A DNA stretch of 32,000 bases from Candidatus Pacearchaeota archaeon (GTDB taxonomy: Archaea; Nanobdellota; Nanobdellia; Pacearchaeales; GW2011-AR1). The DNA lies in the NCBI GenBank assembly GCA_016186365.1, contig JACPLT010000022.1:5777-37776 (forward strand), read 5' to 3'. The notes under the pieces were generated by a model. The model ran no database searches. It saw only the letters and a program-made list of their open reading frames with translations, and was not told the DNA's origin. The position numbers and the translations under genes are program-made. Numbering within the stretch: position 1 is the first letter of the stretch; each line of letters opens with the position of its first letter. Shown piece by piece: positions 6,720-29,933 of the stretch.

Positions 6720-6815
6720 TTCGATATTGACTGAGCGAAGCGAAGTCAATCTTCTCTATAAATTAAAATGTGAATGCTGACCCCAGAATGGGCGTCGGCG
6801 TTCGATATTGACTGA
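6709..6815 (+). repeat. 26-nt direct repeat GGGCGTCGGCGTTCGATATTGACTGA (6709-6734 and 6790-6815) duplicating the tRNA 3' end plus trailer
   Basis: The two copies are exact and 81 nt apart. Between them lie hairpin ATTGACT/AGTCAAT (6725-6749) and a promoter-like GAGCGAAGC...CTCTATAAAT. Confidence 0.8.
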
Positions 6816-6845
6816 ATGAGGGAGGCGCGAAAGATTTAAAAAAAT

Positions 6846-7124
6846 TCATCCAAAAAGCCAGAATTTAATTTTGGAAAAAAAGCCTTTTTTTTCTGAAGGA
6901 AGGGTTAGTGGCTGGGATTCTAAAGTTATTTTTGGTCTTTCTTCCAGAATTGGAATTTCTTTTGCAAGCTGTTCGTTAGCTAATTTCATAGCTCTTTCAA
7001 CTTCAGAACGAGGATAACCTTGAGAGACAAGCGCCCATTTTAAAGAATCAGCAGTATATCCTTTTTTGAGGTTTTTTTTAATATAATTAACTCTCTCCTG
7101 AATATAATCTGTTTCTCTCAACAT
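6846..7124 (-). CDS. Hypothetical small protein (92 aa), 17 nt downstream of the 631-aa surface protein gene
   Basis: ORF with coding-like composition, probably co-transcribed with the upstream gene. A T-run follows the stop on the - strand. Confidence 0.55.
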   Translation of the reverse strand: MLRETDYIQERVNYIKKNLKKGYTADSLKWALVSQGYPRSEVERAMKLANEQLAKEIPILEERPKITLESQPLTLPSEKKGFFSKIKFWLFG

Positions 7125-7141
7125 TTTTTAAAAATTAAATT

Positions 7142-16384: not shown

Positions 16385-17341
16385 ATGGGAAGAAAAAGCA
16401 AACATCGAGACGGATCATTACAATTTTGGCCTAGAAAAAGGTCAAGCAAGTTCTTACCTAGTGTTAACTGGGATGTTTTAAATGGGGAGAAAGGAATTAA
16501 GGGGTTTATTGCATATAAGGTGGGAATGACTTCCTGCCTTGTCAAAGATACTACTTCTAATTCTCTTACAAAAGATAAAAAAATTGTTCTTGCTGCCAGT
16601 GTTCTGGAAGTGCCTGCTATGAAAATATTTTCTATAAGATTTTATAAAAATGGGATTGTTTCAAAAGAGATAATTTCTGAAAATTTAGACAAGGAATTAA
16701 AGAGAGTGATTAGAATTCCGAAGAAAAAGAGTGAAAATATAGACAGCATTAAAGATTATGATGATATCAGGATTATTGCATATTCAAAAGTTGGAGAAAC
16801 TGGGATAAAGAAAACTCCGGACATGACTGAAATTGGATTGCAGGGAAGCCTGGATGAAAAATTAAAGTTTGTTAAGGAGCACATGAGTAAGGAAATTAAA
16901 TTTTCAGAAATATTCAAGCCTGGAATTCTTGTAGACATAAGAGGATTAACAACAGGAAAGGGATTAGAAAGCTCAATTAAAAGATTTGGATTGGGATTAA
17001 AAGGGCATAAAAGCGAGAAAGGGCAGAGAAGACCTGGAAGCTTGGGGCCGTGGCATCCTGCGCATGTAATATTCAGAGTTCCTATGGCAGGGCAGTTAGG
17101 GATGTTTACAAGAATACAATATAATTCAAAGATAGTTTGTATTGGAAAAATTGCTGAAAAGAATATTAATCCTGAAAATGGCTGGAATGCTTATGGAAAA
17201 ATAAAAACAGAATATATAATTGTTCCTGGAAGTGTTCACGGAACAGCTAAGAGGCAGTTATTGCTGACTAGTCCGTTAAGAGCTACTAAAACCCGAATAA
17301 AAAAACAATATGAATTTGTAAAATTAGGAGATTTGAGATGA
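16385..17341 (+). CDS. rpl3: 50S ribosomal protein L3 (uL3)
   Basis: uL3 sequence (FWPRKRS..., GHKSEKGQRRPGSLGPWHP), first gene of the S10-like cluster. Confidence 0.92.
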   Translation: MGRKSKHRDGSLQFWPRKRSSKFLPSVNWDVLNGEKGIKGFIAYKVGMTSCLVKDTTSNSLTKDKKIVLAASVLEVPAMKIFSIRFYKNGIVSKEIISENLDKELKRVIRIPKKKSENIDSIKDYDDIRIIAYSKVGETGIKKTPDMTEIGLQGSLDEKLKFVKEHMSKEIKFSEIFKPGILVDIRGLTTGKGLESSIKRFGLGLKGHKSEKGQRRPGSLGPWHPAHVIFRVPMAGQLGMFTRIQYNSKIVCIGKIAEKNINPENGWNAYGKIKTEYIIVPGSVHGTAKRQLLLTSPLRATKTRIKKQYEFVKLGDLR

Positions 17342-17436
17342 AACTTAAAATTTATACTAAATTAAACAGAAATTTTAAGATCTTGGAGATTTGTGAATCC
17401 CCAAGCTTTCAAATTCCTGATGGAGATTTGAAATGA
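17338..17436 (+). other. Relay ORF (32 codons, MKLKIYTKLNRNFKILEICESPSFQIPDGDLK) bridging rpl3 and rpl4
   Basis: Its ATG overlaps the rpl3 stop (ATGA at 17338-17341) and its TGA overlaps the rpl4 ATG (ATGA at 17433-17436). It spans hairpins at 17344-17379 and 17407-17433. Confidence 0.5.
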
Positions 17437-18215
17437 AAACAAAAGTAATAGATATTGAAGGAAAACAGGGAAAGGAAATTGAACTGCCAGAATGTTTTTC
17501 TGAAAGTATAAGAGAGGATATCGCACAAAAATATTTTGAAACAGAAAAAGTAATACAGCCTTATGCTCCTTACATATATGCAGGAAAACAGAAAAGTGCA
17601 AGCGGAATAGTAGCCCATGGAAGAAGACTATGGAAAACTGCTTATGGGCATGGAATATCAAGAGTTCCAAGAAAAATATTATGGAGAAGAGGAAAACAAT
17701 TTTATTGGGTTGGAGCTACAATTGCTTCTGCTAAAGGCGGAAGAAGGGCACACCCTCCAAGGATAGTTCATTTTTTGAATTATAAAAAAGTAAACAGAAA
17801 AGAAGCTGAAAAAGCTATGGCATCTGGAATTTCTGCAACAGCTTCGCAGGAATATGTTCAGAAAAGATACCCTGATATGAAAATTTCATTAAAATTTCCA
17901 ATAGTTGTTGAAAGCAAGATTATTGATGCGAAAGCGAAAAATTTTATAAGTTCTCTTAAAAAAATATTGGGGGAAAATTATGACTCTGCTATTCCAGTCA
18001 AAAGAAAGAATGCGGGGAGAGGAAAAATGAGGGGGAGAAAATACAGAAATTCTGCGGGTTTATTGATAGTTATCGGAAAGAACGAGAATATGAAGTTCAG
18101 CAGACTGGATATAAAGAAAACAAACGAGCTGAAGATTAGGGATTTATTTCCTTTGGGGAGGCTTGCAATTTATACTGAAAGTGCAATTAAAGATTTGGGA
18201 GAGATGAACAAATGA
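17433..18215 (+). CDS. rpl4: 50S ribosomal protein L4 (uL4)
   Basis: uL4 sequence (GGRRAHPP motif) in conserved gene order. Confidence 0.9.
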   Translation: MKTKVIDIEGKQGKEIELPECFSESIREDIAQKYFETEKVIQPYAPYIYAGKQKSASGIVAHGRRLWKTAYGHGISRVPRKILWRRGKQFYWVGATIASAKGGRRAHPPRIVHFLNYKKVNRKEAEKAMASGISATASQEYVQKRYPDMKISLKFPIVVESKIIDAKAKNFISSLKKILGENYDSAIPVKRKNAGRGKMRGRKYRNSAGLLIVIGKNENMKFSRLDIKKTNELKIRDLFPLGRLAIYTESAIKDLGEMNK

Positions 18216-18451
18216 TAAGCCCGATAACAACTGAAAAAGCAGTAAAATTAATTGAAATAGAGAATACTCTTCTTTTTAAAGTAGACAGCAGAATGGACAA
18301 AGAGGAGATAAAAAGCGAGATTGAAAAATTATTCAATGTGAAAGTTGAGGGAGTCAGAACATTAATGAAAGGAAATGAAAAAGTAGCTTATGTTAAATTA
18401 AACAAAAAGAATCCGGCTATTGATGTAGCAACTAAACTGGGGATGATATAA
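18212..18451 (+). CDS. rpl23: 50S ribosomal protein L23 (uL23)
   Basis: ATGA overlap with rpl4 and a uL23-like sequence (LLFKVDSRMDKEEIKSEIEKLFNVKVEGVRT). Confidence 0.9.
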   Translation: MISPITTEKAVKLIEIENTLLFKVDSRMDKEEIKSEIEKLFNVKVEGVRTLMKGNEKVAYVKLNKKNPAIDVATKLGMI

Positions 18452-18453
18452 AC

Positions 18454-18591
18454 ATGACTAAAGAATTAAATAACCAACAGGAGAAAAACAGTTTAAATAT
18501 GCACGAAACAAATGGCATATTTAAAATCCGGAAAATTAAGAATTTTCCGGCTCTTTCGTTCCGGGGGAACTCAAGATGGGAAAGAGAATAA
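18454..18591 (+). other. Relay ORF (45 codons) from 3 nt after the rpl23 stop, running through modules A-B-C and ending 16 nt inside rpl2 in another frame
   Basis: MTKELNNQQEKNSLNMHETNGIFKIRKIKNFPALSFRGNSRWERE. Through the modules it uses the same frame as the other copies. Confidence 0.45.
18492..18575 (+). repeat. Hairpin cassette copy: A (18492-18525), B (18528-18550), C (18558-18570)
   Basis: A is TTTAAATATGC/GCATATTTAAA with loop ACGAAACAAATG. B is CCGGAAAAT/ATTTTCCGG, showing a compensatory A>G with T>C change relative to the other copies. C is GTTCC-GGG-GGAAC. Confidence 0.85.
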
Positions 18592-19274
18592 TTCAACAGG
18601 CAAGGGGGCACGGAAGCTTAACTTATCAGGTTAGAAAAAGAGCATACATATATAGAATTGACTATCCAAAAGAAGAAGGCAAGGCAAAAGTGCTGGAATT
18701 GTTTAATTCTTGTGCACATTCATCTCCTCTCGCAAAGATACTATTCAACGGAAAAACATATTATATTCCTGCGTTCAGCGGAATGGTTGAGGGACAGGGA
18801 ATAAAGATTGGAGGAAAAGAAATTGAAAATGGAAATGTATTATTATTAAAAGATATTCCTGTCGGGACAAATATTTTTAATATAGAAATAAGACCGAAAA
18901 GCGGAGGAAAATTAGTGAGAGCGTCAGGATTGACTGCAATTGTTACAAAAAAAGCTTTGGGAAAGGTTTCGATAATGATGCCCAGCAAAAAAGAAATATC
19001 CTTGGATGAAAACTGCAGAGCATCAATAGGAATGAGTGCAGGCGAGGGAAGAAAAGAGAAGCCGATTATCAAAGCAGGAAAAAAATGGTATATGATGAAA
19101 GCAAGAAACAAATTATGGCCTAGAACTTCTGCTGTAAAGATGAATGCAATTGACCATCCGTTTGGAAGCGGCAGAGGAAAAAGAATTAAGCCAAAGATTG
19201 CCAAGAGAAATGCGCCTGCTGGAGCAAGAGTAGGATTAATAAGACCAAGAAGAACAGGGAGAAAGAAGAGATAA
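18576..19274 (+). CDS. rpl2: 50S ribosomal protein L2 (uL2)
   Basis: uL2 sequence (MNAIDHPFGSGRGKR, C-terminal RRTGRKKR). Confidence 0.92.
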   Translation: MGKRIIQQARGHGSLTYQVRKRAYIYRIDYPKEEGKAKVLELFNSCAHSSPLAKILFNGKTYYIPAFSGMVEGQGIKIGGKEIENGNVLLLKDIPVGTNIFNIEIRPKSGGKLVRASGLTAIVTKKALGKVSIMMPSKKEISLDENCRASIGMSAGEGRKEKPIIKAGKKWYMMKARNKLWPRTSAVKMNAIDHPFGSGRGKRIKPKIAKRNAPAGARVGLIRPRRTGRKKR

Positions 19275-19275
19275 A

Positions 19276-19320
19276 ATGAAACTTAAAAAATTAAATAAAA
19301 AAAATATTTTAAAAATCTGA
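19276..19320 (+). other. Relay ORF (14 codons, MKLKKLNKKNILKI) starting 1 nt after the rpl2 stop
   Basis: Its TGA (19318-19320) lies in the loop of hairpin AAATC-TGAG-GATTT, 12 nt before the rps19 ATG. Confidence 0.4.
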
Positions 19321-19340
19321 GGATTTATTAAAATGGCAGA
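19307..19340 (+). repeat. 34-nt block TTTTAAAAATCTGAGGATTTATTAAAATGGCAGA, identical to 26575-26608
   Basis: Exact match that includes the start codon and next five bases of both rps19 and rps5. Confidence 0.9.
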
Positions 19341-19749
19341 TTTAGGAAAAAAACCGGAATTTGAAAAGAAGCAGTTTTTTTATAGAGGGAAAACTCTTGA
19401 AGAATTAAAAAAACTTGATACAAGAGAGTTCGCTAAATATGTTCCTGCGAGAGAGAGAAGGACTATACTTAGAAATTTTGATGTTATTGAGGAATTCGTA
19501 AAAAGATGCAATAAAAAAATGGAAAAAGGAAAACAGATAAGAACACATTTAAGAGATATAATAATAGTTCCGCAGATGGTTGGAATGATAATTAATATTC
19601 ACAACGGAAAAGAGTTTACACAGGTAAAAATAGTAGAAGATATGTTAGCCCATAGATTAGGAGAGTTCGCGATAACAAGAAAAGAAATTAAACATGGAGC
19701 TCCTGGAATCGGCGCGACAAAGAGCTCTGCTTCAATGTCAGTTAAGTAA
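19333..19749 (+). CDS. rps19: 30S ribosomal protein S19 (uS19)
   Basis: uS19 motif MLAHRLGEFAITRKEIKHGAPGIGATKSS. Confidence 0.9.
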   Translation: MADLGKKPEFEKKQFFYRGKTLEELKKLDTREFAKYVPARERRTILRNFDVIEEFVKRCNKKMEKGKQIRTHLRDIIIVPQMVGMIINIHNGKEFTQVKIVEDMLAHRLGEFAITRKEIKHGAPGIGATKSSASMSVK

Positions 19750-19758
19750 GGAGAAAAA

Positions 19759-20424
19759 ATGGAACGAGAATATATTAAAAATAAGAATGAACAAAAAAAA
19801 GAAAATGTAGCTGGAAACAAAATAGAAAATCCAAAAGACTTGCCTAAACAGGAAGCTCAAAATGTTGAGAAAAAAGAAGAGGACACAAAAACTGAAATCA
19901 AGGAAGAAGTTAAAACTGAAGAGAAGAAAGGAAAGGAAAAGAAGAAGCAAGAGAGAAAAATAAGAGAGCAGGCAGTTGTTAATGGAAAAGACTTGGGAAT
20001 TTCAAAAAAACAATCAATGGACATATGCAGGTTCATAAAAGGAAAGAGAGTTGAGCAGGCAATTAAAGAGCTTGAAGAGGTGGTTAAGATGAAAAGAGCA
20101 CTGCCTATGAGAGGAGAAATTCCACACAGGCATGGAATGATGTCAGGAAGGTATCCTAAAACTGCATGCGGAGTTTTTATAATGCTGCTTAAAAGTTTGC
20201 AGTCAAATGCGAGCGAGGGGGGAATAATGACTCCTCAAATAATTATGGCAAAGGCGAATAAAGCGTCGAGACCATTCAGAAGATTTGGCTCAAGAAAGTT
20301 CAAAAGAACGCATGTTAGTTTAATTGCAAAGGAATATATAGTGAAAGACACAAATCTTTCCCTATCTAGCAGAGGACATACAGAGAAGTTATCAAAGTCC
20401 TCCGCTATAAGAGCAAAGAATTAA
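19759..20424 (+). CDS. rpl22: 50S ribosomal protein L22 (uL22) with a K/E-rich N-terminal extension of about 70 aa
   Basis: The core starts near GKDLGISKKQSMDICRFIKGKRVEQAI. GGAG lies 9 nt upstream of the ATG. Confidence 0.85.
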   Translation: MEREYIKNKNEQKKENVAGNKIENPKDLPKQEAQNVEKKEEDTKTEIKEEVKTEEKKGKEKKKQERKIREQAVVNGKDLGISKKQSMDICRFIKGKRVEQAIKELEEVVKMKRALPMRGEIPHRHGMMSGRYPKTACGVFIMLLKSLQSNASEGGIMTPQIIMAKANKASRPFRRFGSRKFKRTHVSLIAKEYIVKDTNLSLSSRGHTEKLSKSSAIRAKN

Positions 20425-20454
20425 AGAAAGAAGAAAACAAGGAGAAAAAGTAAA

Positions 20455-21126
20455 TTGGAAGAGAGAAAATTTATACAGCTTAAGAAAGAAGAATTCGGAG
20501 TAAAGGAATACATAAGACAGCAGATAGGAAAGGGAAAGCTTAGTTCGATCTCTATTGAATATACTCCTGTGGGAGAAAAAATAATATTGTCTACAAGCAA
20601 GCCCGGAATGCTTATTGGGAGAGGGGGAGAAAAGATTATGGAGCTGACTGAAATATTAAAGAAAAGATTCAAGCTTGAGAACCCCCATATAGAAATAAAG
20701 GAGATTGAAAAAGGTGAGCTTGATGCGCAGACAGTTGCAGATGAGATTGCAATGTTTTTAGAAAGAATGGGGAGCCTGAAATTCAAGGTAATAGCCTATC
20801 AGATGATTCAAAGAATTATCGCTGCAGGAGCAAAGGGAGTAGAGATAAGGCTGTCTGGAAAGCTTCCAAGCGAAAGAGCAAAAAGCTGGAGATTTGCAGT
20901 AGGGTATCTTAAGAAAACTGGGGATACTGCAAAGGTGGTCAATAAAGGAGAGGCGGTTGCTGAAACAATGATAGGAGTAATAGGGATAAAAGTCGGTTTG
21001 CTTCCACCGGACATAAAAGTTCATGATCAGATAGAAGTAAATCAGGAATTATTAAATCAGATAAAAAAGAATTTAGAAAGTTTAGAAGAGAAGAAAGAAG
21101 AGAACAAAAAAACAAAGAACAAATAA
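20455..21126 (+). CDS. rps3: 30S ribosomal protein S3 (uS3), TTG start
   Basis: KH-domain GMLIGRGGEKI. GGAG at 20441-20444 lies 10 nt before TTG 20455. The C-terminal tail is K/E-rich. Confidence 0.88.
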   Translation: MEERKFIQLKKEEFGVKEYIRQQIGKGKLSSISIEYTPVGEKIILSTSKPGMLIGRGGEKIMELTEILKKRFKLENPHIEIKEIEKGELDAQTVADEIAMFLERMGSLKFKVIAYQMIQRIIAAGAKGVEIRLSGKLPSERAKSWRFAVGYLKKTGDTAKVVNKGEAVAETMIGVIGIKVGLLPPDIKVHDQIEVNQELLNQIKKNLESLEEKKEENKKTKNK

Positions 21127-21127
21127 A

Positions 21128-21310
21128 ATGGCAATAATAAAAAACAAAGAAATTAAAAATTTGCAGAAGAAGGACATAGAGGAAAAATTAAAAGAATTAA
21201 GAATGGAGTTGGTGAAGAAGAATGTAACTGCAAATAAATCCGGGAAAATAAAAACAAAAGAAATTAAAAAGGCAATTGCCAGAATACTCACACTGTTAAA
21301 CAAAAAATGA
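21128..21310 (+). CDS. rpl29: 50S ribosomal protein L29 (uL29)
   Basis: 60-aa helical protein in the conserved position after rps3. Confidence 0.85.
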
Positions 21311-21606
21311 ACATATGTCCAAAATGCGGTTTACCAGAGCAAGCATGTGTCTGTGCGGACATCGCAAAAGAAGAACAGAAAATAAGAATAGGGACAGTGA
21401 AAAGAAAGTTCGGAAAGATAACAACTGTTGTCGAGGGATTTGACAGCGGAATTGACATAAAGGAAATAGCCAAAAAGTTAAAAAACGAACTTGCCTGCGG
21501 AGGAACAGTAAAAAACAACTCCATAGAACTGCAGGGAGATCACACCAAGAAGATAAGACCTGCTTTGGTAAAGTACGGGTTCAGAGATGAACAAATAACT
21601 GAGTAA
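21307..21606 (+). CDS. Translation initiation factor aSUI1 (aIF1)
   Basis: N-terminal Cys cluster [13 protein letters not shown] and the SUI1 motif [22 protein letters not shown] overlap with rpl29. Confidence 0.85.
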
Positions 21607-21613
21607 AACAAAA

Positions 21614-21979
21614 ATGAAACAAGAAAAAAATGAAACAATAGTGGAAAGCAACAAAAACAGCTGTAATGATAGCCAGTGCAATATTCATTCTGGGTTAAAA
21701 GTCAGAGGAAGAACATTTGACGGCTATGTTACTAAGAAGTTTAACAGAAGAGTTGTAATTGAATTTGAAAAAATAGTTTATATCAAGAAATATGAAAGAT
21801 ATACAAAGAGAAAAACAAAGCTTCATGCGAGAGTTCCATCTTGTGTTCAGGAAAAAGTTAAAGTTGGGGATTATGTCAAGGTAGGAGAGTGCAGACCATT
21901 AAGCAAGATTATTCATTTTGTATTTTTAGAAAAAATAAGAGATGCTGACAAGAAAAATAATGAAGGAGATTTGAAATGA
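21614..21979 (+). CDS. rps17: 30S ribosomal protein S17 (uS17)
   Basis: CNDSQCNIH...RGRTF N-terminus and VGDYVKVGECRPLSK. Confidence 0.85.
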   Translation: MKQEKNETIVESNKNSCNDSQCNIHSGLKVRGRTFDGYVTKKFNRRVVIEFEKIVYIKKYERYTKRKTKLHARVPSCVQEKVKVGDYVKVGECRPLSKIIHFVFLEKIRDADKKNNEGDLK

Positions 21980-22377
21980 AACCAGTATCCGCAAAAACAA
22001 CAAAAGCGTTGAATATAGGAAGCATGGTTAATGTTGCAGACAACTCTGGAGCAAGAATTGCAAGAATAACTGGAGTTAAGGGGGGAAAAGGAAAGAAAGG
22101 GAGACAAATGGGATGCAAGCTTGGAGACTGGGTAAAAGTTTCTATAAGAGCTGGAAATCCTGAAATGAGAGGGCAGTTAATGGACGCTGTGGTGATAAGA
22201 GTAAAAAAGCCATACAGAAGACTAACTGGAGAGAGAATTGCTTTCACAGACAATGCAGTAGTAATATTAAAAGATGAAAAGGGAAATCCAAAAGGAACGC
22301 AGATTAAGGGACCTGTTCCTAGAGAGATACAAGAAAGATGGAAGGAGGTTTCCAAATTATCCGGGATAATAATATAA
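21976..22377 (+). CDS. rpl14: 50S ribosomal protein L14 (uL14)
   Basis: VADNSGAR motif and ATGA overlap with rps17. Confidence 0.92.
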   Translation: MKPVSAKTTKALNIGSMVNVADNSGARIARITGVKGGKGKKGRQMGCKLGDWVKVSIRAGNPEMRGQLMDAVVIRVKKPYRRLTGERIAFTDNAVVILKDEKGNPKGTQIKGPVPREIQERWKEVSKLSGIII

Positions 22378-22378
22378 G

Positions 22379-22837
22379 ATGAAACAAAAATTTTCAACCG
22401 CTTGGATAGGAAGCAGACAGCCGAGGAAGCAGAGAAAATTCAGAGAGAATGCTCCGCTTCACATAAAGAGAGAGATGCTCGCGGCAAACTTAAGCAAAGA
22501 GTTAAGAAAGAAACTTGGGAGAAGAAGCATAATTGTAAGGAAAGGAGACATGGTCAAGATAATGAGGGGAGAGTTCAGAGGGAAGACTGGAAAAGTGAGT
22601 GTTGTGGAAACAAAGGATACAAGAGTGGCAATAGAAGGAATACAAAGGCAGAAGAAAGAGGGTTCAAAAGTGAATGTTTATTTTAATCCTTCAAATTTGC
22701 AGATTACAGAAGCAAATACAGAAGACAAGAAAAGAATAAAAATTGAAGAGAAGAAAGAGGAAGCGAAAACAGAAGGAAAGAAGAAAGAAGATAAAAAAGA
22801 AAAACAAGGAGAAAAAAATGCACCTAACAAGAAATGA
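22379..22837 (+). CDS. rpl24: 50S ribosomal protein L24 (uL24) with a K/E-rich C-terminal extension
   Basis: KOW motif VRKGDMVKIMRGEFRGKTGKV. The tail is EDKKRIKIEEKKEEAKTEGKKKEDKKEKQGEK. Confidence 0.88.
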   Translation: MKQKFSTAWIGSRQPRKQRKFRENAPLHIKREMLAANLSKELRKKLGRRSIIVRKGDMVKIMRGEFRGKTGKVSVVETKDTRVAIEGIQRQKKEGSKVNVYFNPSNLQITEANTEDKKRIKIEEKKEEAKTEGKKKEDKKEKQGEKNAPNKK

Positions 22838-23450
22838 AATACCTGTAAAATGGAGAGTCCAAAAGAAAGGGACAAAATATGTAGTTACAACAAGGTACTG
22901 CAAAGATAAATCTATTCCTGTTCTTGTTGCTCTTAGAGACATGCTTAAACTGGGGCAGGACAGGAGAGAAGTTGAAAAAATACTGGATATGAGCAAGATT
23001 AAAATTAATGGAAAAATAATAAAAGAATCAAGATACCCTGTAACAATTTTTGATATTCTTAATATTGGAGATAAAAACTATAGAATGATTATCCAGAATA
23101 AAAAGTTCAGTTTAGAAGAAGTTTCCGGAAAAGAGGCAAATGAAAAGATAGCAAAAGTTATTGGAAAAAAAGTTCTGAAGAAAAAAATAATCCAAATTAA
23201 TCTGGCAGATGGGAGAAATTATAAAACAAAAGAAAAAGCAAAAGTTGGAGATTCAGTAATTATAAATTTTAAAGAGAATAAAATTTCTGAAACTCTTCCT
23301 ATGAAAGATGGAATGAAAGCAATGTTCCTTAATGGAAGCAGGATAGGGAAAGTGGGGGAAATTGAAAAAATAAATGGGAAGGAAGCAATAATAATCCTGG
23401 ACAAAGAGAAAATAAATGCTAAACTAATCAATTTAATGGCGGTAAAATAA
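22818..23450 (+). CDS. rps4e: 30S ribosomal protein S4e (eS4); start moved to ATG 22818 (the track ORF begins at 22743 inside rpl24)
   Basis: MHLTRNEIPVKW is the typical eS4 N-terminus. GGAG lies 7 nt upstream. The gene overlaps the rpl24 end by 20 nt. Confidence 0.85.
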   Translation: MHLTRNEIPVKWRVQKKGTKYVVTTRYCKDKSIPVLVALRDMLKLGQDRREVEKILDMSKIKINGKIIKESRYPVTIFDILNIGDKNYRMIIQNKKFSLEEVSGKEANEKIAKVIGKKVLKKKIIQINLADGRNYKTKEKAKVGDSVIINFKENKISETLPMKDGMKAMFLNGSRIGKVGEIEKINGKEAIIILDKEKINAKLINLMAVK

Positions 23451-23451
23451 A

Positions 23452-23952
23452 ATGGCAAATGTAATGGAAGAGATAAGGATAGAAAAAGTTGTAATAAGTG
23501 TAAGCGGGACTGCGGAAAAGCTTGAAAAAGGAAGAAAATTGCTAGAAATATTGTCTGGAAAAAAACCTGCTAAAATGAAATCAACTAAAAGAATTCCCTC
23601 TCTAGGAGTCCGCCCGGGATTAGAAGTCGGAGCGCTAGTTACATTAAGAAGAAAACCTGCAATTGACCTTCTTAGAAGACTGCTTGCTGCTGTAGATGAT
23701 ACTCTTAAAAGAAGGCAGATTTCAGCAGGGACAGTTTCATTTGGGATAAAAGAGTATATTGAAATTCCAGGAATGCAGTATAACAGGGAGATTGGAATGG
23801 CAGGATTAGATGTGAGCATAAGCTTTTACAGATTGGGAAAGAGAGTTAAGATGAAAAAAATAAAGACTGGAAAGATACCTGCAAAAAACAAGATAAGCAA
23901 AGAAGAAGTTGAAGCATTTTTAGAAAATAAATTAGGAGTGAAATTAAGATGA
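23452..23952 (+). CDS. rpl5: 50S ribosomal protein L5 (uL5)
   Basis: IEKVVISVSG... and EYIEIPGMQYNREIGMAGLDVS. Confidence 0.9.
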   Translation: MANVMEEIRIEKVVISVSGTAEKLEKGRKLLEILSGKKPAKMKSTKRIPSLGVRPGLEVGALVTLRRKPAIDLLRRLLAAVDDTLKRRQISAGTVSFGIKEYIEIPGMQYNREIGMAGLDVSISFYRLGKRVKMKKIKTGKIPAKNKISKEEVEAFLENKLGVKLR

Positions 23953-24053
23953 AAAAACTTAAAAGTTTTTACCTATTAAATTTCAGGAGAAATTTAAGAT
24001 CCAGAAAATCTGATGATTTTCTGGCTTTTGATTTCCGGGGGAAATCAAAATGA
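23949..24053 (+). other. Relay ORF (34 codons, [34 protein letters not shown]) bridging rpl5 and rps14
   Basis: ATGA overlaps at both ends (23949-23952 and 24050-24053). Confidence 0.5.
23953..24049 (+). repeat. Hairpin cassette copy in permuted order: D (23953-23970), C' (23979-23994), B (24001-24024), C (24030-24046)
   Basis: D is AAAAACTT-AA-AAGTTTTT. C' is AATTTC-AGGA-GAAATT. B is CCAGAAAAT-CTGATG-ATTTTCTGG. C is GATTTCC-GGG-GGAAATC. Confidence 0.85.
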
Positions 24054-24280
24054 CTGCAAGCGACTGGAAGAAGATTACGAAACAGCTTAGAAATAAGAAA
24101 GCAAAACTAAGCAAATTCCTAAGACATAATAAACCGAAAGATAGAAAAACAGGAATAGCAAAATATAAATGTGAAAGATGCGGAAGGTTTGGGGCGCATA
24201 TTTCTTCATATAATCTAAATTTATGCAGACAATGCTTCAGAGAGATAGCTGAAGAAATTGGATTTAAAAAATACAGCTAG
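24050..24280 (+). CDS. rps14: 30S ribosomal protein S14 (uS14), zinc-binding type
   Basis: CERCGR...CRQCFRE (two CxxC pairs). Confidence 0.85.
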
Positions 24281-24288
24281 GAGAAAAA

Positions 24289-24666
24289 ATGAGCCAAGAC
24301 ACAATTTCAGATGGATTAAACCAGATAATGAACTGCAAAAGAGCAGGAAAAGATAATGTAGTCATAATTAGGTATTCAAAAGTTTTGATAAATGTACTGG
24401 AGATTGCGAAGAAACAAGGGTATTTAGATTATCAGCTTGATGAAAAAAATAAAGTATTAAGAGTGAAAATAAAAAGCCTGAATGAAGGCAGGGCAATAAA
24501 ACCAAGATTCTATGTTAAAGTTGAAGAAATTGAAAAATATGTAAGAAGATATCTTCCGTCAAGAGAGTTCGGGATAATCTTAATTTCAACAAGCAAGGGA
24601 TTAATTACACAGGCAGAAGCTTATGAAAAAAATATAGGGGGAAGCTTAGTAGCTTATTTTTACTGA
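24289..24666 (+). CDS. rps8: 30S ribosomal protein S8 (uS8)
   Basis: DTISDGLNQIMNCKRAGK N-terminus and GGSLVAYFY C-terminus. Confidence 0.9.
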   Translation: MSQDTISDGLNQIMNCKRAGKDNVVIIRYSKVLINVLEIAKKQGYLDYQLDEKNKVLRVKIKSLNEGRAIKPRFYVKVEEIEKYVRRYLPSREFGIILISTSKGLITQAEAYEKNIGGSLVAYFY

Positions 24667-25205
24667 TGGTGAGAAAACCGATAAAAGATGAAGTTGAAAT
24701 TCCAGAAGGAATGAACGCCGAGATAGTTGGAGATGTAATCAAGATAAGCAAAGATGGAAAGAGTGTTGAGAAAAAAATATGCTACGAAGCAAAGATAGAT
24801 GGAAAAAAGATAGTAATTGAATGCAAAAGCCCCAGTAAAAATGAAAAAAAGCTGATAAAAACTACAAAAGCACATATTAAGAATATGATCAGCGGATTAA
24901 ATGAAAAGTATGAGTATAAAATGCAAATTTGCGCGGTTCATTTTCCTATGACTGTAACAGCTGCAGGGAATGAAGTAATTATTAAAAATTTCCTTGGAGA
25001 AAAAAAAGAAAGAAGGGCACAGATAGTTCCGGATGTAGAAGTTAAAATAGAAAAGGAGTTTATCACAATTAAAAGTGCAAGCAAAGATAAGGCGGGGCAG
25101 ACTGCTGCAAATATTGAAAGAGCAACTAAAATAAAAAATAGAGACAGAAGAGTTTTTCAGGACGGGATATACATAACTGAAAAACAGAAGGGGGCTACAA
25201 GATGA
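24666..25205 (+). CDS. rpl6: 50S ribosomal protein L6 (uL6)
   Basis: TGATG junction with rps8, two-domain uL6 sequence, conserved order. Confidence 0.9.
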   Translation: MVRKPIKDEVEIPEGMNAEIVGDVIKISKDGKSVEKKICYEAKIDGKKIVIECKSPSKNEKKLIKTTKAHIKNMISGLNEKYEYKMQICAVHFPMTVTAAGNEVIIKNFLGEKKERRAQIVPDVEVKIEKEFITIKSASKDKAGQTAANIERATKIKNRDRRVFQDGIYITEKQKGATR

Positions 25206-25252
25206 AAAAACTGAAGTTTTTACCTCTTTCGTTCCGGGGGAACTCAAGATGA
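25202..25252 (+). other. Relay ORF (16 codons, MKKLKFLPLSFRGNSR) bridging rpl6 and rpl32e
   Basis: ATGA overlaps at both ends (25202-25205 and 25249-25252). Confidence 0.5.
25206..25248 (+). repeat. Minimal cassette: D (25206-25221, AAAAACT-GA-AGTTTTT) plus C (25231-25243, GTTCC-GGG-GGAAC)
   Basis: 25224-25251 is identical over 28 nt to 18551-18578 (the rpl2 leader). Confidence 0.85.
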
Positions 25253-25611
25253 AAAATATTAGATTTTTAAGAACAGGAACAAAAAGACACAAGAGATTGG
25301 GAAAGGCCAATAAAAATAAACAGATATGGAGAAGACCGAAAGGAAGGCACAATAAAATAAGGCAAAATGAAAAATCAAAACAAAGAAAAGTTCAAATTGG
25401 ATTCAGAAGCAAACCAGAAGAAAGAGGGAAGATAAAAGGCAAGCCGATGCTGCTAGTCCGGAATATTAAAGAAGCAGAAAATGTAAAGACAGGAGATTAT
25501 GTTATTATCGGAAAAATGGGAAAAAAGAAGAAAATAGAAATTGAAAAAGTCCTGGAAGATAAAAAAGCAGTCATACTTAACAAGAGGAAAGAAAATGAGC
25601 TTAAAAAATAA
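25249..25611 (+). CDS. rpl32e: 50S ribosomal protein L32e (eL32)
   Basis: WRRPKGRHNKIR motif. Confidence 0.85.
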   Translation: MKNIRFLRTGTKRHKRLGKANKNKQIWRRPKGRHNKIRQNEKSKQRKVQIGFRSKPEERGKIKGKPMLLVRNIKEAENVKTGDYVIIGKMGKKKKIEIEKVLEDKKAVILNKRKENELKK

Positions 25612-25981
25612 AAAAATGTTGATTTCAAGAGTACTGAATGTAGGAGTGGGAAGAATAAAACTTAATCCCAATGCTAAAACAGAGATAGAAGAAGCAATAA
25701 CTAGGCAGGACATCAGAGATTTAAAAGAACAGGGGATAATAAGGATTGAAGAAGTTAGTGGAAGAAAAATAGTGGAAAAGAGAAAGAAGAGAAGAGCAGG
25801 AAAAATAAAGAAGAGAGTTGAGGGAAAGGATAGTTATGTTGTGGTTACAAGAAAGTTGAGAGGGTATTTAAAAAATTTGAAGAGCAAGGGGCAGATAAGC
25901 AAGGAAAAATATTATGATTTAAGGAGAAAGACAAAAGCAAGGACTTTTAAGGGACTTTCGCACTTAAAGGAGTCAATATGA
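25595..25981 (+). CDS. rpl19e: 50S ribosomal protein L19e (eL19); start moved to ATG 25595
   Basis: MSLKNKKMLISRVLNVGVGRIKLNP is the typical eL19 N-terminus. The gene overlaps the rpl32e end by 17 nt. Confidence 0.85.
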   Translation: MSLKNKKMLISRVLNVGVGRIKLNPNAKTEIEEAITRQDIRDLKEQGIIRIEEVSGRKIVEKRKKRRAGKIKKRVEGKDSYVVVTRKLRGYLKNLKSKGQISKEKYYDLRRKTKARTFKGLSHLKESI

Positions 25982-26481
25982 TTAAAGTAAAAAAATTAAG
26001 AAGAAGAAAGGGAAAAACCGATTATAGAAGAAGGGTTGAGCTGCTGAAAAGCGGTAAACCGAGAATTGTATTTAGAAAAACAAATAAGTATATTATCGGG
26101 CAATTTGTCATGAGCAAAGAAGCTAAAGACATAGTAACTGAGGGGTTAACTTCAAAAAACCTGCTTAAATATGGCTGGCCAAAAGAAAATATAGGAAGCT
26201 TAAAATCATTAGGAGCCGCATATCTAACAGGATATTTGCTAGGAAAAAGAGTATTAGATAAAGAAGAGAAAGCGGAAGGTATACTAGATATTGGACTGAA
26301 TACCAGTGTAAAAAAATCCAAGATTTATGCTTTTTTGAAAGGGGTAAAAGAAGCAGGAGTAAAAATAGAGTGCGATGAAAAATTATTTCCTGATGAAAAA
26401 AGAATAATGGAAAGCGGGAAAATGAAAAAAGCAGATATTTTTAAAAAAATAAAGGGAGAGATAGATAAGAAACTGGCATAA
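25978..26481 (+). CDS. rpl18: 50S ribosomal protein L18 (uL18)
   Basis: RRRKGKTDYRRR motif and ATGA overlap with rpl19e. Confidence 0.88.
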   Translation: MIKVKKLRRRKGKTDYRRRVELLKSGKPRIVFRKTNKYIIGQFVMSKEAKDIVTEGLTSKNLLKYGWPKENIGSLKSLGAAYLTGYLLGKRVLDKEEKAEGILDIGLNTSVKKSKIYAFLKGVKEAGVKIECDEKLFPDEKRIMESGKMKKADIFKKIKGEIDKKLA

Positions 26482-26482
26482 A

Positions 26483-26599
26483 ATGATAAATAATGAATTA
26501 AATTTTGAGAGAAGTTCAGAAATGCACGAGGCAAATAGCATTTCTGAAATCCAGAAAATCGGGGATTTTCTGGCTTTTAAAAATCTGAGGATTTATTAA
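26483..26599 (+). other. Relay ORF (38 codons, MINNELNFERSSEMHEANSISEIQKIGDFLAFKNLRIY) spanning the rpl18-rps5 spacer
   Basis: It starts 1 nt after the rpl18 TAA and its own TAA ends 1 nt before the rps5 ATG (TAAAATG at both ends). Confidence 0.45.
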
Positions 26600-26600
26600 A
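26515..26600 (+). repeat. Hairpin cassette copy: A (26515-26548), B (26551-26573), SD-loop hairpin AAATC-TGAG-GATTT (26581-26594)
   Basis: A is TTCAGAAATGC/GCATTTCTGAA with loop ACGAGGCAAATA. B is CCAGAAAAT-CGGGG-ATTTTCTGG. Confidence 0.85.
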
Positions 26601-27305
26601 ATGGCAGAAGAACGCAGAGATAGAAGAAGAGACAACAGAAACCCAAGAGAATCAAGATATGGGAGAAAGAGAGAAGAGCCAGAGCCAAAGCCATGGGTGC
26701 CTAAGACAAAGATAGGAAAACTTGTGAAAGAGGGCAAAGAAAAAGATATAGACAAAGTTATAAAAGAGTATAAGATACTTGAGCCAGAAATTATAGATAA
26801 TTTGATAGAAGTTAAATCCGATTTATTAAGCATAGGACAATCAAAAGGAAAATTTGGCGGAGGAAAAAGAAGGGTATGGAGACAGACGCAGAGAAAAACT
26901 GCAGAAGGAAATGTTCCTACATTTGCCTGCTTGTCTGTTGTTGGCGACGAGAACGGGCATGTCGGCATGGGTTATGGAAAAGCCAAAGAGACACCTCCTG
27001 CCAGAGAAAAATCACTAAGAAATGCCAAACTAAATGTTTTTGCTGTGAAGAGAGGATGCGCAAGTTTTGACTGCTCATGCAACGAGTTCCATTCAATTCC
27101 TATGAAAGTTGAAGGAAAGTGCGGAAGCGTAAGAATCATTTTGATTCCTGCACCTCAAGGGACAGGATTAGTTATAGGGGACGAGTGCAAGAAAATTTTA
27201 AGACTGGCAGGAATAAAAGATATTTACAGCAAAAGATTCGGACAATCAAGAACTACAATAAATTATGCCAAGGCGTGCATTGATGCCTTGAAGAAGCTAA
27301 AATGA
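26601..27305 (+). CDS. rps5: 30S ribosomal protein S5 (uS5)
   Basis: Archaeal-type basic N-terminus, GKFGGGKRRVWRQTQRKT, and uS5 domains. Confidence 0.9.
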   Translation: MAEERRDRRRDNRNPRESRYGRKREEPEPKPWVPKTKIGKLVKEGKEKDIDKVIKEYKILEPEIIDNLIEVKSDLLSIGQSKGKFGGGKRRVWRQTQRKTAEGNVPTFACLSVVGDENGHVGMGYGKAKETPPAREKSLRNAKLNVFAVKRGCASFDCSCNEFHSIPMKVEGKCGSVRIILIPAPQGTGLVIGDECKKILRLAGIKDIYSKRFGQSRTTINYAKACIDALKKLK

Positions 27306-27724
27306 TTTGCATTATAAGAATACGCGGACAGATTGGAATAAGATATGACATAGATGAAACCTTATTTAGAATGGGAATTAGAAAGAAATATTCATGCATT
27401 GTTATAAAAGAGACTAAAGAAAATTTAGGAATGCTTGCTAAAATTGAAAATTTTGTAGCATACGGAAAGATAGACAAAGAAATACTGGCAGAACTTATTA
27501 AAAAAAGGGGAAAGGCAATAGGAAACAAGAAAATAGACGCAGAAAAAATAGCTTCAGAATTTGCAGAGGGAAAAATAGACAAAAGATTTTCAGAGCTGGG
27601 AATAAAAGATTTTTTTACACTGCATCCTGCAAGAGGCGGAATGGAGACAAAATTCCACTATCCAAAAGGAGTTTTAGGGAATAATAAAGAGGATATAGCT
27701 AAATTATTGAGGAGAATGTTATGA
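27302..27724 (+). CDS. rpl30: 50S ribosomal protein L30 (uL30)
   Basis: ICIIRIRGQIGIRYDIDETLFRMGIRKK and ATGA overlap with rps5. Confidence 0.85.
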   Translation: MICIIRIRGQIGIRYDIDETLFRMGIRKKYSCIVIKETKENLGMLAKIENFVAYGKIDKEILAELIKKRGKAIGNKKIDAEKIASEFAEGKIDKRFSELGIKDFFTLHPARGGMETKFHYPKGVLGNNKEDIAKLLRRML

Positions 27725-28029
27725 GGAAAAAAGGATTTATAGACAACTGCGCCGCAGCTTGCATTACATCTTTTTCGCAGTTCTCTATCTGTCTAACTGT
27801 ACTAAATTGTCATCTAACCAATGCAGTTATCCATAACAATAGGAGATTTGACAGCAAAAATTCATGCTTGGATAGTATGAATTTAGGCTGCTCAGAAATG
27901 CACGAAACAAATAGCATTTTTGAGACTTCAAGAACTTCAGTTCTTGATAGTTCTCAGAAATTAAAAATTTCTGAAATCCAGAAAATCGGGGATTTTCTGG
28001 CTTTTGATTTCCGGGGGAAATCAAAATGA
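27721..28029 (+). other. 102-codon relay ORF filling most of the rpl30-rpl15 spacer (not a conventional protein gene)
   Basis: Its ATG overlaps the rpl30 TGA (ATGA). Its last 44 codons (MHETNS...) run through hairpin modules A, A2, A3, B and C, and its TGA overlaps the next ATG. Confidence 0.45.
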
Positions 28030-28078
28030 AAAAAACAAATGAATTTTTTGCCTCATTAAATTTCAGGAGAAATTTAAG
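27891..28078 (+). repeat. Expanded hairpin cassette: A (27891-27924), A2 (27929-27946), A3 (27955-27973), B (27978-28000), C (28006-28022), C' (28059-28074)
   Basis: All stems are perfect except for one G-T (G-U) wobble in A. 27992-28029 equals 24016-24053 (38 nt), and 28055-28080 equals 23975-24000 (26 nt). Confidence 0.85.
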
Positions 28079-28082
28079 ATGA
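28026..28082 (+). other. Relay ORF (18 codons, MKKTNEFFASLNFRRNLR), the last link before rpl15
   Basis: ATGA overlaps at both ends (28026-28029 and 28079-28082). Confidence 0.45.
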
Positions 28083-28525
28083 AACTCAAAAAAAATAAAA
28101 AATCAGTAAGAATGAGAGGAACAAGGTTGCATGGCTGGGGAGCTAAAAAACATAAGGGAAAGGGGAATAGAGGAGGAAAGGGGTTTTCTGGAAGCGGAAA
28201 AAGAGCAGACCAGAAAAAAACTTATGTTTTGAAATATCATTTTCCTTATTTTGGAAAACAGGGATACACAAGCAGAAGCACAAAAAGAAACAAACTTCTG
28301 TTCATAAATGCAGGAAATATTGAAACAAGATATAAAGAGGGGGAAATTGATTTGAGCAAGTATAAGATACTGGGAGAGGGAGAGATTAAGAAGAAATATA
28401 TTATAAAAGCCAAAGGGGTTTCTAAATCTGCAAGAGAAAAAATAGAGAAAGCTGGCGGGAAAGTCATGGTTATTGGGGAAAAATTAAAAGAGACAAGAAA
28501 AATAGAAGAGAAAAAGAAAGTTTAA
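28079..28525 (+). CDS. rpl15: 50S ribosomal protein L15 (uL15)
   Basis: MRGTRLHGWGAKKHKGKGNRGGKGFSG. Confidence 0.88.
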   Translation: MKLKKNKKSVRMRGTRLHGWGAKKHKGKGNRGGKGFSGSGKRADQKKTYVLKYHFPYFGKQGYTSRSTKRNKLLFINAGNIETRYKEGEIDLSKYKILGEGEIKKKYIIKAKGVSKSAREKIEKAGGKVMVIGEKLKETRKIEEKKKV

Positions 28526-28550
28526 ATACTAAATTTTTTTATTAATTATC

Positions 28551-29933
28551 ATGAATTTAAACACAATTTTGCATAATTTGCCTGAAATTCAGGGACCAGT
28601 AGAAAAGAAGCTCGCTTTTAACACCAAGCTTAAATGGACTTTAATTGTTCTTGCAGCTTTTTTTATTCTTGCGAATATACCCTTATATGGAATTGCTCAA
28701 AACTCTCTTGATAGATTTGAATATCTTGCGATTATACTAGGAACAGATTTTGGAAGCATAATCTCCCTTGGAATTGGGCCGATTGTTATGGCATCTATCA
28801 TCTTGCAATTGTTAGTTGGAAGTAAGATACTTAATATTGATTTGAAAAGCCCGGATGGAAAGAAATATTTTCAGGGGCTGCAAAAGATAGCAGTATTCTT
28901 TTTTATAATATTTGAGGCATTAGTGTATGTTTTAATGCAGGGGCTGGCAGCAGTTCCAGGATACGCACCAATTGTTATATTCCAGTTATTTTTAGGGGGG
29001 CTAGTAATTGTATTTATGGATGAACTTGTAAGCAAGTGGGGATTTGGCTCTGGAGTTAGTTTATTTATCGCTGCAGGAGTTGGTTGGAGATTATTTACTG
29101 GAATGTTCCAGTTCATAAGCCCGGGAGGAAATTGCTTGCTAGATTTTGACGGGACACCTTGCGCAGGAAAGATATTAATTATTTTCCAGTCTATCATAAG
29201 CCAGAATCCTACTGAAGCACTAAAAGCTGTCGCGGTTTTAGCTGTGACTGCGGGAATATTTTTAGTTATAGTCTGGGCACAATCACTCAAAGTAGAAATT
29301 CCGCTGTCATTTGATAGATTGAGGGGTTATGGAATGAAGTGGCCATTATCTTTCTTTTACACTTCAAATATGCCTGTAATATTAGTTGCAGCTCTTGCTG
29401 CAAATATTCAGTTATTTGCAGGACTGATTGAGAGCTGGCTCGGACATCCTACATTTTTAGGAACTTTTTCACAAGGACAGCCTGTTGCAGGTTTTGCTTT
29501 TTGGATATCTTCGGTGAATATTTTAGATAATCTTATATCCGGCAGTTTTAGAAGTATATTTGCATTGCAAGCACTAACTCACATTATCTTTTATATCGGG
29601 CTTTCTGTTGTTTTTGCATTATTCTGGGTGAAGACATCTGGAATGGATGCTTCCAGCCAGGCAAGGAACATAATGTCTTCTGGATTGCAGATTCCGGGAT
29701 TTAGGAAAGACGAAAGAGTTTTAGAAGTAGTTTTGTCAAGATATATCTTGCCATTGACAGTGATGGGCGGAGCAGCAGTTGGATTGTTGGCTTCTGCTGC
29801 AGATTTGCTCGGAGCATTAACATCTGGGACAGCAATATTGCTTGCAACAATGATAATTTACCAGTTCTACCAGAATATCGCGCAACAGCATGCGATGGAT
29901 ATGCATCCTTCTCTGAAGAAGATGATGGCATAG
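28551..29933 (+). CDS. secY: Protein translocase subunit SecY
   Basis: Ten-TM SecY/Sec61alpha-like sequence in the conserved position after rpl15. Confidence 0.92.
   Translation: MNLNTILHNLPEIQGPVEKKLAFNTKLKWTLIVLAAFFILANIPLYGIAQNSLDRFEYLAIILGTDFGSIISLGIGPIVMASIILQLLVGSKILNIDLKSPDGKKYFQGLQKIAVFFFIIFEALVYVLMQGLAAVPGYAPIVIFQLFLGGLVIVFMDELVSKWGFGSGVSLFIAAGVGWRLFTGMFQFISPGGNCLLDFDGTPCAGKILIIFQSIISQNPTEALKAVAVLAVTAGIFLVIVWAQSLKVEIPLSFDRLRGYGMKWPLSFFYTSNMPVILVAALAANIQLFAGLIESWLGHPTFLGTFSQGQPVAGFAFWISSVNILDNLISGSFRSIFALQALTHIIFYIGLSVVFALFWVKTSGMDASSQARNIMSSGLQIPGFRKDERVLEVVLSRYILPLTVMGGAAVGLLASAADLLGALTSGTAILLATMIIYQFYQNIAQQHAMDMHPSLKKMMA

Follow-up and report, generated by a model that had tools for sequence, protein, structure and literature searches.

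The ribosomal-protein cluster of the Candidatus Pacearchaeota contig JACPLT010000022.1, analysed here as one stretch of 32,000 nucleotides (nt; the window), raises the question of what lies between the genes for ribosomal proteins L6 (rpl6) and L32e (rpl32e), where a 47 nt unit is flanked by two perfect copies of the 12 nt sequence CAAGATGAAAAA. The original prediction was that a single ancestral ATGA stop/start junction had been duplicated when a hairpin-bearing unit arrived, either as a target-site duplication or as a junction duplication that rebuilds a working overlap on both sides. We find that the unit is one copy of a clade-specific family of repeated, hairpin-forming mini-gene cassettes in a small DPANN group, and we consider it probable, if short of certain, that it is a lineage-specific translated intercistronic cassette that relays the ribosome from one gene to the next.

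The window has a GC content of 34% and carries an archaeal ribosomal-protein cluster on the + strand in the order L3, L4, L23, L2, S19, L22, S3, L29, SUI1, S17, L14, L24, S4e, L5, S14, S8, L6, L32e, L19e, L18, S5, L30, orf102, L15, SecY. L5 through L30, L1, L10 and L12 are named from Pfam matches, and the other genes from conserved order and the annotation of relatives. The nearest public relatives are uncultured contigs of Nanoarchaeota, Pacearchaeota or Woesearchaeota type (DPANN) with L6 identities at or below 65%, and the window's own L6 sequence is on a single contig. Loci with 55–65% L6 identity to the window are referred to as the nearest clade; loci of relatives carry three-digit numbers (e.g. 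L162), and gene junctions are written as upstream gene>downstream gene. An L6 scan of genome contigs yielded a best relative of only 51% identity, and the modules described below are absent from those loci; the distant loci from the L6 scan (80 archaeal loci, 1.09 Mb) served as the negative control for the covariance model.

The components named in the original prediction are all present in the sequence: the two copies of CAAGATGAAAAA are the only exact ones in the window, and the 16-codon open reading frame (ORF), hairpins D and C, the stop/start overlaps and the 28 nt identity to the rpl2 leader, including its ATG, are as described (Table 1). The ATG of this relay ORF (25202-25204) overlaps the rpl6 TGA (25203-25205), and its own TGA (25250-25252) overlaps the rpl32e ATG at 25249. 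The tail of rpl6 (..EKQKGATR*) encodes a G-run Shine-Dalgarno (SD) sequence (25190-94) and a 7 nt spacer before the next start; L6 tails of relatives read K-x-K-G-(A/R)-basic* followed by ATGA, with GGAG or GGGAG at the position equivalent to the window's GGGGG. A second GGGGG (25236-25240) sits within the relay ORF, 8 nt before the rpl32e ATG. The 28 nt identity (25224-25251 with 18551-18578) had no counterpart in 100 shuffles, and the module corresponding to hairpin C1 is found in L086 with a covarying stem (CGCAC..GTGCG).

Does the junction exist without the unit? In most DPANN relatives it is tight (ATGA, TAATG or TAAAATG), and in the nearest clade a direct rpl6/rpl32e ATGA overlap is present, at 55–64% L6 identity to the window, in L163, L082, L164, L165, L166, L168, L170, L085 and L088. 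These empty-site sequences resemble CAAGATGAAAAA (e.g. AAGATGACAAAA / AAAATGAAAATC and GGAGCAAGAAGATGACAAAA / GGGGAGGAAAAAATGAAAATC), and removing one repeat copy and the 35 intervening bases from the window in silico leaves a normal site (GGGGG, 7 nt, ATGA). A single ancestral ATGA junction, as first proposed, is thus plausible, and the nine empty sites support the reading that a tight junction received an insert. Filled junctions take several forms: L162 and L167 have inserts of 50 nt (ATG to ATG) with the same layout of hairpin D and SD hairpin as the window, L083, L084 and L169 an insert of 26 nt with the SD hairpin only, L081 one of 20 nt, and L161 one of 116 nt, whose 39-codon ORF is unrelated. 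In each of these clade inserts, the window's included, an ORF spans the gap with ATGA at either end, and the ATG-to-ATG distances (47, 50, 50, 20, 26 and 116 nt) are all 2 mod 3, so that the idea of working overlaps rebuilt on both sides is strongly supported. Filled and empty junctions are intermixed on the L6 tree, which compares lineages at about 60% identity and not members of one population, and the carriers of the two-hairpin (D+C) form (the window, L162 and L167) are interspersed with empty-site lineages on this single-protein, weakly resolved tree.

The unit is repeated at other junctions, and the junctions occupied differ among genomes. The family layout is ATGAAAAAA, an A/T hairpin, a CCTCTT linker, a hairpin containing the SD, and AAGATGA, with the consensus ATGAAAAAA-n-TAAAAATTTTTT-GCCTCTT-AAACTC-nGAGGAn-ATTTAAGATGA and a length of about 47–57 nt. 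A covariance model (R1) built from 12 cassettes gave 34 matches in 0.83 Mb (the window together with metagenome and assembly loci), all of them in the window or in nearest-clade loci and all 34 on the coding strand; those placed on gene maps fall at gene junctions. The 1.09 Mb of more distant archaeal loci gave one weak match. Other cassettes are located at L5>S14 and orf102>L15 in the window, at L32e>L19e in L162 (besides L6>L32e), at L19e>L18 and S8>L6 in L163, at S4e>L5, L5>S14, S5>L30, L2>S19 and SecY>EMC3 in L168, at L14>L24 in L169, and at L5>S14 and L2>S19 in L164. The window holds three D+C and five B+C-type copies in 32 kb, and L168 at least five in 16.5 kb; the 'B' hairpins, which belong to longer A-B-C leaders, match R1 as analogues of hairpin D lacking the ATG. 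No identical tandem units were seen, only composites of unlike modules (D-C3-B-C2 and A-x-x-B-C2-D-C3). Rfam searches of the whole window at the gathering score returned no family for any module, and at E≤1 there was no match in 17200-28600 and only a chance microRNA match in 3400-7200 (E=0.24, opposite strand).

The hairpins themselves are conserved as structures. In helix 1 (hairpin D) 98% of alignment cells are paired and five of the seven pairs have changes on both sides, and for both hairpins together the figures are 94.8% (against 81.9% in shuffled alignments) and 10 of 17, counts that are biased towards structure because the sequences were aligned by fitting them to the model. For covariation the score is 0.364, compared with 0.142 in shuffles (reached by none of 500) and 0.04–0.09 in slid controls. 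Pairing in the second helix extends to the A of the downstream AUG, with the SD left in the loop or beside it.

The ORFs are likewise more than expected. Among 54 junctions with gaps of 15–160 nt, drawn from the window and the 10 relatives with gene calls, 25 are bridged, that is, contain an ATG-initiated ORF starting within -5 to +9 of the upstream stop and ending within -9 to +5 of the downstream start. Interior shuffles that keep the length and both junction contexts predict 7.1 (Poisson-binomial P=1.6e-14, with independence overstated because cassette copies are partly homologous). The spacing is constrained also: the ATG-to-ATG distance of simple D+C cassettes (n=12) is 2 mod 3 in nine, 1 mod 3 in three and never 0 mod 3, the one class that would fuse the mini-ORF with the downstream gene. 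When all 22 relay units are considered, 16 are spaced 2 mod 3, placing TGA over the downstream ATGA, and five are spaced 1 mod 3, a spacing that in L168 at L5>S14 puts a TAA stop 1 nt ahead of the ATG; around the ATG, the ending TTTAAGATGA holds stops in both of the other frames. Between L164 and L168, the orthologous inserts at L2>S19 show compensatory stem changes and a 3 nt indel; the peptide differs while the frame and the hairpins are kept, which points to two joint constraints, RNA hairpins and an open frame of correct phase.

These observations bear on the view that the unit is an untranslated structured RNA (for example an element for processing or stability, a site bound by a protein or a ribosomal-protein feedback leader) in which the ORF is incidental. 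The covarying hairpins fit it, as do modules A and B, whose loops and stems are conserved across genomes, and the open frame of the unit itself is not significant on its own. It gives no account of bridging ORFs at 3.5 times expectation, the non-random frame classes, the in-frame indel between the L164 and L168 orthologs, or the bridging, with ATGA at both ends, of unrelated inserts (L161, 116 nt; L081, 20 nt), and the cassette region has no Rfam match even at E≤1. We consider it unlikely in its exclusive form, if not negligible; it is compatible with a relay, and the hairpins may add a role at the RNA level.

How might a relay of this kind work? In Haloferax volcanii and E. coli, termination-reinitiation coupling is nearly abolished by an intergenic distance of about 20 nt (PMC10666635), and a 43 nt spacer is therefore expected to break coupling unless it is translated. 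Recognised solutions are short ORFs that bring ribosomes to a downstream gene, mycobacterial interspersed repetitive units (MIRUs) and bicistronic designs (BCDs) (PMC12548453). In the reading that we propose, the cassette start, ATG AAA AAA, is placed exactly at the former start of the downstream gene, overlapping or abutting the upstream stop; it is followed by the A/T hairpin D, the conserved CCUCUU linker, and a second hairpin that holds the downstream SD in or near its loop and pairs as far as the A of the downstream AUG, and the cassette stop overlaps or abuts that AUG (..AAGAUGA). A ribosome finishing rpl6 would terminate at UGA 25203-05, reinitiate on the overlapping AUG, read 16 codons while melting hairpins D and C, terminate at UGA 25250-52 and reinitiate at the overlapping rpl32e AUG, and the 1:1 coupling of the former ATGA junction would be kept despite 43 inserted bases. 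When upstream translation is lacking, SD and start codon would be masked by the hairpins and possibly by the CCUCUU linker, which resembles an anti-SD. The linker (A/G)CCTCTT (25223-25230) is complementary to the purine-rich SD at the 3' end of the upstream gene (25187-25194), where it pairs with GAAGGGGG in the minimum free energy fold. It might mimic an anti-SD, the pairing being one seen only in a statistically non-significant fold.

Table 1. Positions in the window of the rpl6-rpl32e unit, its relatives at other junctions and the paired SD hairpins.
Feature	Position	Strand	Remarks
L1-L10-L12 operon	3649-5416		
Relay ORF, 32 codons, L3>L4	17338..17436	+	ATGA at both ends; 95 nt insert
B+C1 module in rpl2 leader	18526..18579	+	Twin of the C1 half of the unit; R1 match 40.2 bits
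Relay ORF, 34 codons, L5>S14	23949..24053	+	Cassettes D-C3 and B-C2; ATGA at both ends
rpl6 (L6) coding sequence	24666..25205	+	Pfam PF00347 Ribosomal_L6, E=4.8e-21; stop TGA 25203-25205
SD-like GGGGG in rpl6 3' end	25190..25194	+	7 nt before ATG 25202; read from sequence
Left copy of CAAGATGAAAAA	25198..25209	+	Spans final sense codon and stop of rpl6, overlapping relay ATG and first A-run of hairpin D
Relay ORF, 16 codons, MKKLKFLPLSFRGNSR*, = D+C cassette	25202..25252	+	ATGA overlap at both ends; R1 match 58.7 bits, E=1.7e-8
Hairpin D, AAAAACT GA AGTTTTT	25206..25221	+	Helix 1 of the cassette family
Linker ACCTCTTTC, anti-SD-like	25222..25230	+	Kept as [A/G]CCTCTT across the cassette family alignment
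28 nt block identical to rpl2 leader 18551-18578	25224..25251	+	One of four SD-hairpin types
Hairpin C1 (hairpin C), GTTCC GGG GGAAC	25231..25243	+	Presents or partly sequesters G-run SD 25236-25240
Right copy of CAAGATGAAAAA	25245..25256	+	Spans cassette end, relay stop and rpl32e start (MKN..)
rpl32e (L32e) coding sequence	25249..25611	+	Pfam PF01655 Ribosomal_L32e, E=2.7e-11
ORF, 38 codons, L18>S5	26483..26599	+	Modules A, B, C4; starts 2 nt past upstream stop, ends 2 nt before downstream ATG
Relay ORF, 18 codons, orf102>L15	28026..28082	+	D-C3 cassette; ATGA at both ends
SD-hairpin twin pair, 28 nt	18551-18578/25224-25251	+	Perfect identity
SD-hairpin twin pair, 39 nt	24015-24053/27991-28029		Perfect identity
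SD-hairpin twin pair, 26 nt	23975-24000/28055-28080		Perfect identity
SD-hairpin twin pair, 34 nt	19307-19340/26575-26608		Perfect identity

How the cassettes came to occupy their junctions is suggested by their closest kin, which lie at non-orthologous positions. The D half of the window's unit is closest to the L5>S14 cassette of L164 (25/27), and the D half of the L6>L32e cassette of L162 comes closest to the copies at L2>S19 in L168 and L164 (26/27). Each of the four SD-hairpin types in the window is present exactly twice, in perfect identity and with differing flanks (Table 1), and one of the pairs extends over the opening 8 nt of the coding sequences of S19 and S5 (ATGGCAGA). The D-C3 and B-C2 cassettes are in opposite order at L5>S14 and orf102>L15. 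As sequences, the twins suggest recent copying or gene conversion between start regions, and together with the non-orthologous nearest kin they argue for repeated events of this kind and not for vertical descent of one old insertion.

An alternative origin is local tandem duplication, in which a 47 nt segment comprising the junction and the first rpl32e codons was copied and its 3' part was then overwritten by C1 in a gene conversion with the rpl2 leader as donor; a relay ORF would follow automatically from a length of 2 mod 3. The 25 bases at 25198-25222 are identical to those at 25245-25269 in 20 positions, the relay peptide MKKLKFL resembles the L32e start MKNIRFL, and the 28 nt identity to 18551-18578 suggests a recent conversion. 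Against this, the D half is nearer to the L164 L5>S14 cassette (25/27) than to rpl32e and fits the family consensus, and Lys (AAA) codons followed by Phe-Leu (TTTTTA) would alone yield the resemblance. We judge this origin to be distinctly unlikely.

The remaining question is the flanking 12 nt repeat. By a naive null it appears striking (seven matches with at most one mismatch, 1.57 expected). The relevant null compares the start context (-14 to +12) of a relay ORF with that of another clade gene, and over 22 units the mean contiguous run is 7.2 nt for self pairs, 6.2 nt for non-self pairs within a genome and 5.9 nt for non-self pairs between genomes; runs of at least 12 nt are found in 4/22 (18%), 5% and 3.5%, respectively. 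Against this null, the 12 nt repeat is not unusual. Permutation p values for the excess of self-flank similarity are 0.04 within genomes and 0.01 globally for identity, and 0.18 and 0.006 for run length. The origin of the repeat lies in the two ends of the unit, each of them a translation-start site of one consensus, namely an SD, 7–9 nt ending in AAG or AAA, ATGA, and AAA, which is written also in the 3' ends of real genes, often as ..GDLR* or ..KGARR*. Its halves ATGAAAAAA (left) and CAAGATG (right) are intrinsic ends of the cassette family, the left AAAAA being part of hairpin D and the right CAAGATG part of C1, a module that the rpl2 leader has as well; the L6 tail (..R*) supplies CAAGATGA and the L32e start (MK..) supplies ATGAAAAAT. 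The repeat is thus mostly the clade's translation-start consensus, a by-product of cassette design, and an explanation by conserved termini, which the original prediction had named as one that would undo it, largely holds once start context and cassette ends are added; a weak self-flank excess is left over. A perfect repeat would also favor precise loss by slippage.

Classical transposition, with an element like a MITE (miniature inverted-repeat transposable element) entering the ATGA junction and leaving a 12 nt target-site duplication, would account directly for the perfect direct repeat, for the empty sites in relatives and for the higher share of long flanking runs in relay units. There are several reasons to regard it as very unlikely. 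First, terminal inverted repeats are absent (the ends are ATGAAAAAA.. and ..CAAGATGA), and in a test for MITE structure the ends ATGAAAAAACT.. and ..GAACTCAAGATGA are not complementary, the hairpins being internal only. Second, the flanking repeat has no fixed length. The original prediction called for a check of whether other insertions carry junction duplications of similar length, and repeats are indeed present at L3>L4, where the flanks GGAGATTTGA[G/A]ATGAAA are identical in 16/17 positions (17327-17343 and 17422-17438) around an insert that does not match the D+C model, at L19e>L18 in L163 (15 nt) and at L14>L24 in L169 (16 nt); their length varies among cassettes, with a range of 3 to 16 nt. 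Third, the repeat is composed of cassette-intrinsic ends and gene termini, and the L6>L32e cassette of L162, of the same architecture, has flanks that share only AAGATGA. Finally, Pfam scans of 19 other ORFs in the 32 kb of the window revealed no transposase, and the viral contigs scanned contained no match to either the B-hairpin pattern or the cassette consensus. The target-site duplication is therefore the part of the original prediction that we do not retain; the cassettes appear to spread by copying or gene conversion at microhomologies and not by a transposase that makes duplications of fixed length.

A genuine small protein gene for the 16-residue peptide was rejected and is highly improbable, since peptides change wherever stems covary (L164 against L168), ORFs at one and the same junction vary in length between 6 and 39 codons and the sequence is dictated by hairpins and SD, even though gene callers annotate some such ORFs in relatives (e.g. 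L161 4844-4963 and L164 7289-7387).

Several observations weigh against a translated relay. The open frame of the L6>L32e unit, taken alone, is retained in 69% of interior shuffles and is thus expected, so that the evidence from bridging is collective and not local. The same genomes also have long junctions that are unbridged, among them several at SecY/EMC3 and, in the window, L23>L2. For 25186-25262 the fold is no stabler than that of shuffled sequence (z=-0.23), and the masking of the start would draw its support from covariation in the family only. The residual self-flank similarity, weak as it is, would allow for a minor duplication or a microhomology step on insertion. That the relay ORF is translated is itself read from sequence features.

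A further and more tentative step is to regard the cassettes as a self-propagating intercistronic element family of DPANN archaea, a counterpart of the MIRUs that, by virtue of its own start codon, SD hairpin and stop/start overlap, would insert at ATGA junctions of essential, stoichiometry-sensitive operons without polar effects and that the host may have co-opted for strict ribosome hand-over. We put this forward as a possibility that we would not yet favor. In that case relayed ribosomes would translate a chain such as L30 > orf102 > relay > L15 from one end to the other.

Related modules are found in several other contexts in the window and its relatives. Leaders of the longer A-B-C type are located before L1, L2 and S5, and also inside the 3' end of orf102, upstream of L15. 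Hairpin A is present at 3566-3597, 18493-18524, 26516-26547 and 27892-27923 (all +), with the form TCAAAAATGC-N12-GCATTTTTGA, a conserved loop ACGAAACAAA and compensatory stem changes among copies, and in all four ATG CAC GAA.. opens the same frame (MHETNSIF..); a version with a loop of about 32 nt is located at S5>L30 and L30>L15 in L169. The orphan orf102 (27721-28029, +), an ORF of 102 codons, lies between L30 and L15 and overlaps with ATGA on either side; in its last 43 codons it is read through hairpin A, two additional hairpins, B and C2. For its first 59 codons the fetched loci contain no homologue and Pfam gives no match, and in relatives its slot holds a NUDIX gene (L162), a gene of metallo-beta-lactamase fold (L163) or nothing. 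The region 6480-6860 contains a hairpin pair resembling B/C (model match at 6540-6590) and a repeated GCCGACGTGGGA motif; it has no protein-family match, its only sizeable ORF is unlike a typical protein, no Rfam match was found at E≤1, and it may be a non-coding RNA.

Other genes are more distant from the question. Two adjacent large genes on the - strand (7142-9037 and 9113-12211; 631 and 1032 residues) have several segments that are 80–84% identical, the first has a Big_3-type Ig-like domain, and they are probably paralogous surface proteins. Relatives carry additional genes in the ribosomal-protein operon, mostly with 4 nt overlaps with their neighbors, including a gene for an RNase T-like exonuclease between L4 and L23 (L163 760-1407 and L164 782-1369) and, in L161, L162, L163, L166 and L170, unannotated ORFs of 59–153 residues around L14, between S17, L14 and L24.

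Among known repeats, REP (repetitive extragenic palindromic) elements and bacterial interspersed mosaic elements (BIMEs), other intercistronic palindromic repeats and the Rickettsia palindromic elements all form hairpins, and the Rickettsia elements are translated in frame. The cassettes resemble these as repeated hairpin units tolerated inside operons; REP elements differ in their link to RAYT transposases and in not being built as ORFs whose stops and starts overlap those of neighboring genes. Within the limited searchable literature on DPANN, Nanoarchaeota and Woesearchaeota we found no description of the cassette family, which does not prove its absence. Synthetic two-cistron and bicistronic design expression cassettes were reportedly described by Schoner in 1986 and Mutalik in 2013. 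The likeness lies in a short leader cistron of about 16 codons that includes the second cistron's SD and whose stop overlaps the next start, such that a translating ribosome would unfold the start region and hand over to the gene; the cassette differs in being natural, repeated and internal to operons, and, with its own start coupled to the preceding gene, it would be a relay and not a leader. The synthetic designs are cited in PMC12548453 (ref 78).

The closest comparison is with the mycobacterial MIRUs (Supply et al. 1997), which are described as mobile repeats inserting at start codons, with an internal ORF coupled to the gene at -4 nt, so that insertion affects expression minimally (PMC12548453). 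Both are short dispersed repeats located between co-directional operon genes and oriented with them. The cassettes fall within the about 40–100 bp taken for a MIRU-like repeat and have several copies per genome, their internal ORF starts in overlap with the upstream stop and stops in overlap with the downstream start (25202-25252), and they are present or absent at orthologous junctions, here between lineages. They differ in their host, an archaeon of a DPANN/Nanoarchaeota-like lineage, and their AT-rich sequence; in consisting of two covarying hairpins, one carrying the SD; in their concentration in ribosomal-protein operons; and in forming composites of different modules instead of the identical tandem arrays of variable number tandem repeat behavior. 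The relation would be one of analogy and not of membership, homology not being expected at 34% GC.

Termination-reinitiation at ATGA and TGATG overlaps is known in archaea (Huber et al. 2019, PMC6728339; 2023, PMC10666635), and each cassette junction has the same overlap motif and the same presumed mechanism; the difference is that a cassette would chain two such overlaps, by way of a dispensable mini-ORF, across a spacer that would otherwise abolish coupling. If a relay operates, it would be a natural solution to the collapse of coupling beyond about 20 nt (PMC10666635), with structured inserts of 43–120 nt sitting within the most stoichiometry-sensitive operons of very small genomes. There is a consequence for annotation, in that gene callers list some of the mini-ORFs as hypothetical proteins and call chimeras like orf102 genes. 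As relays, the cassettes would be both an archaeal analogue of the MIRUs and a natural version of the bicistronic design, and their filled and empty junctions, frame classes and hairpin types would provide a set of variants for testing how far reinitiation chains.

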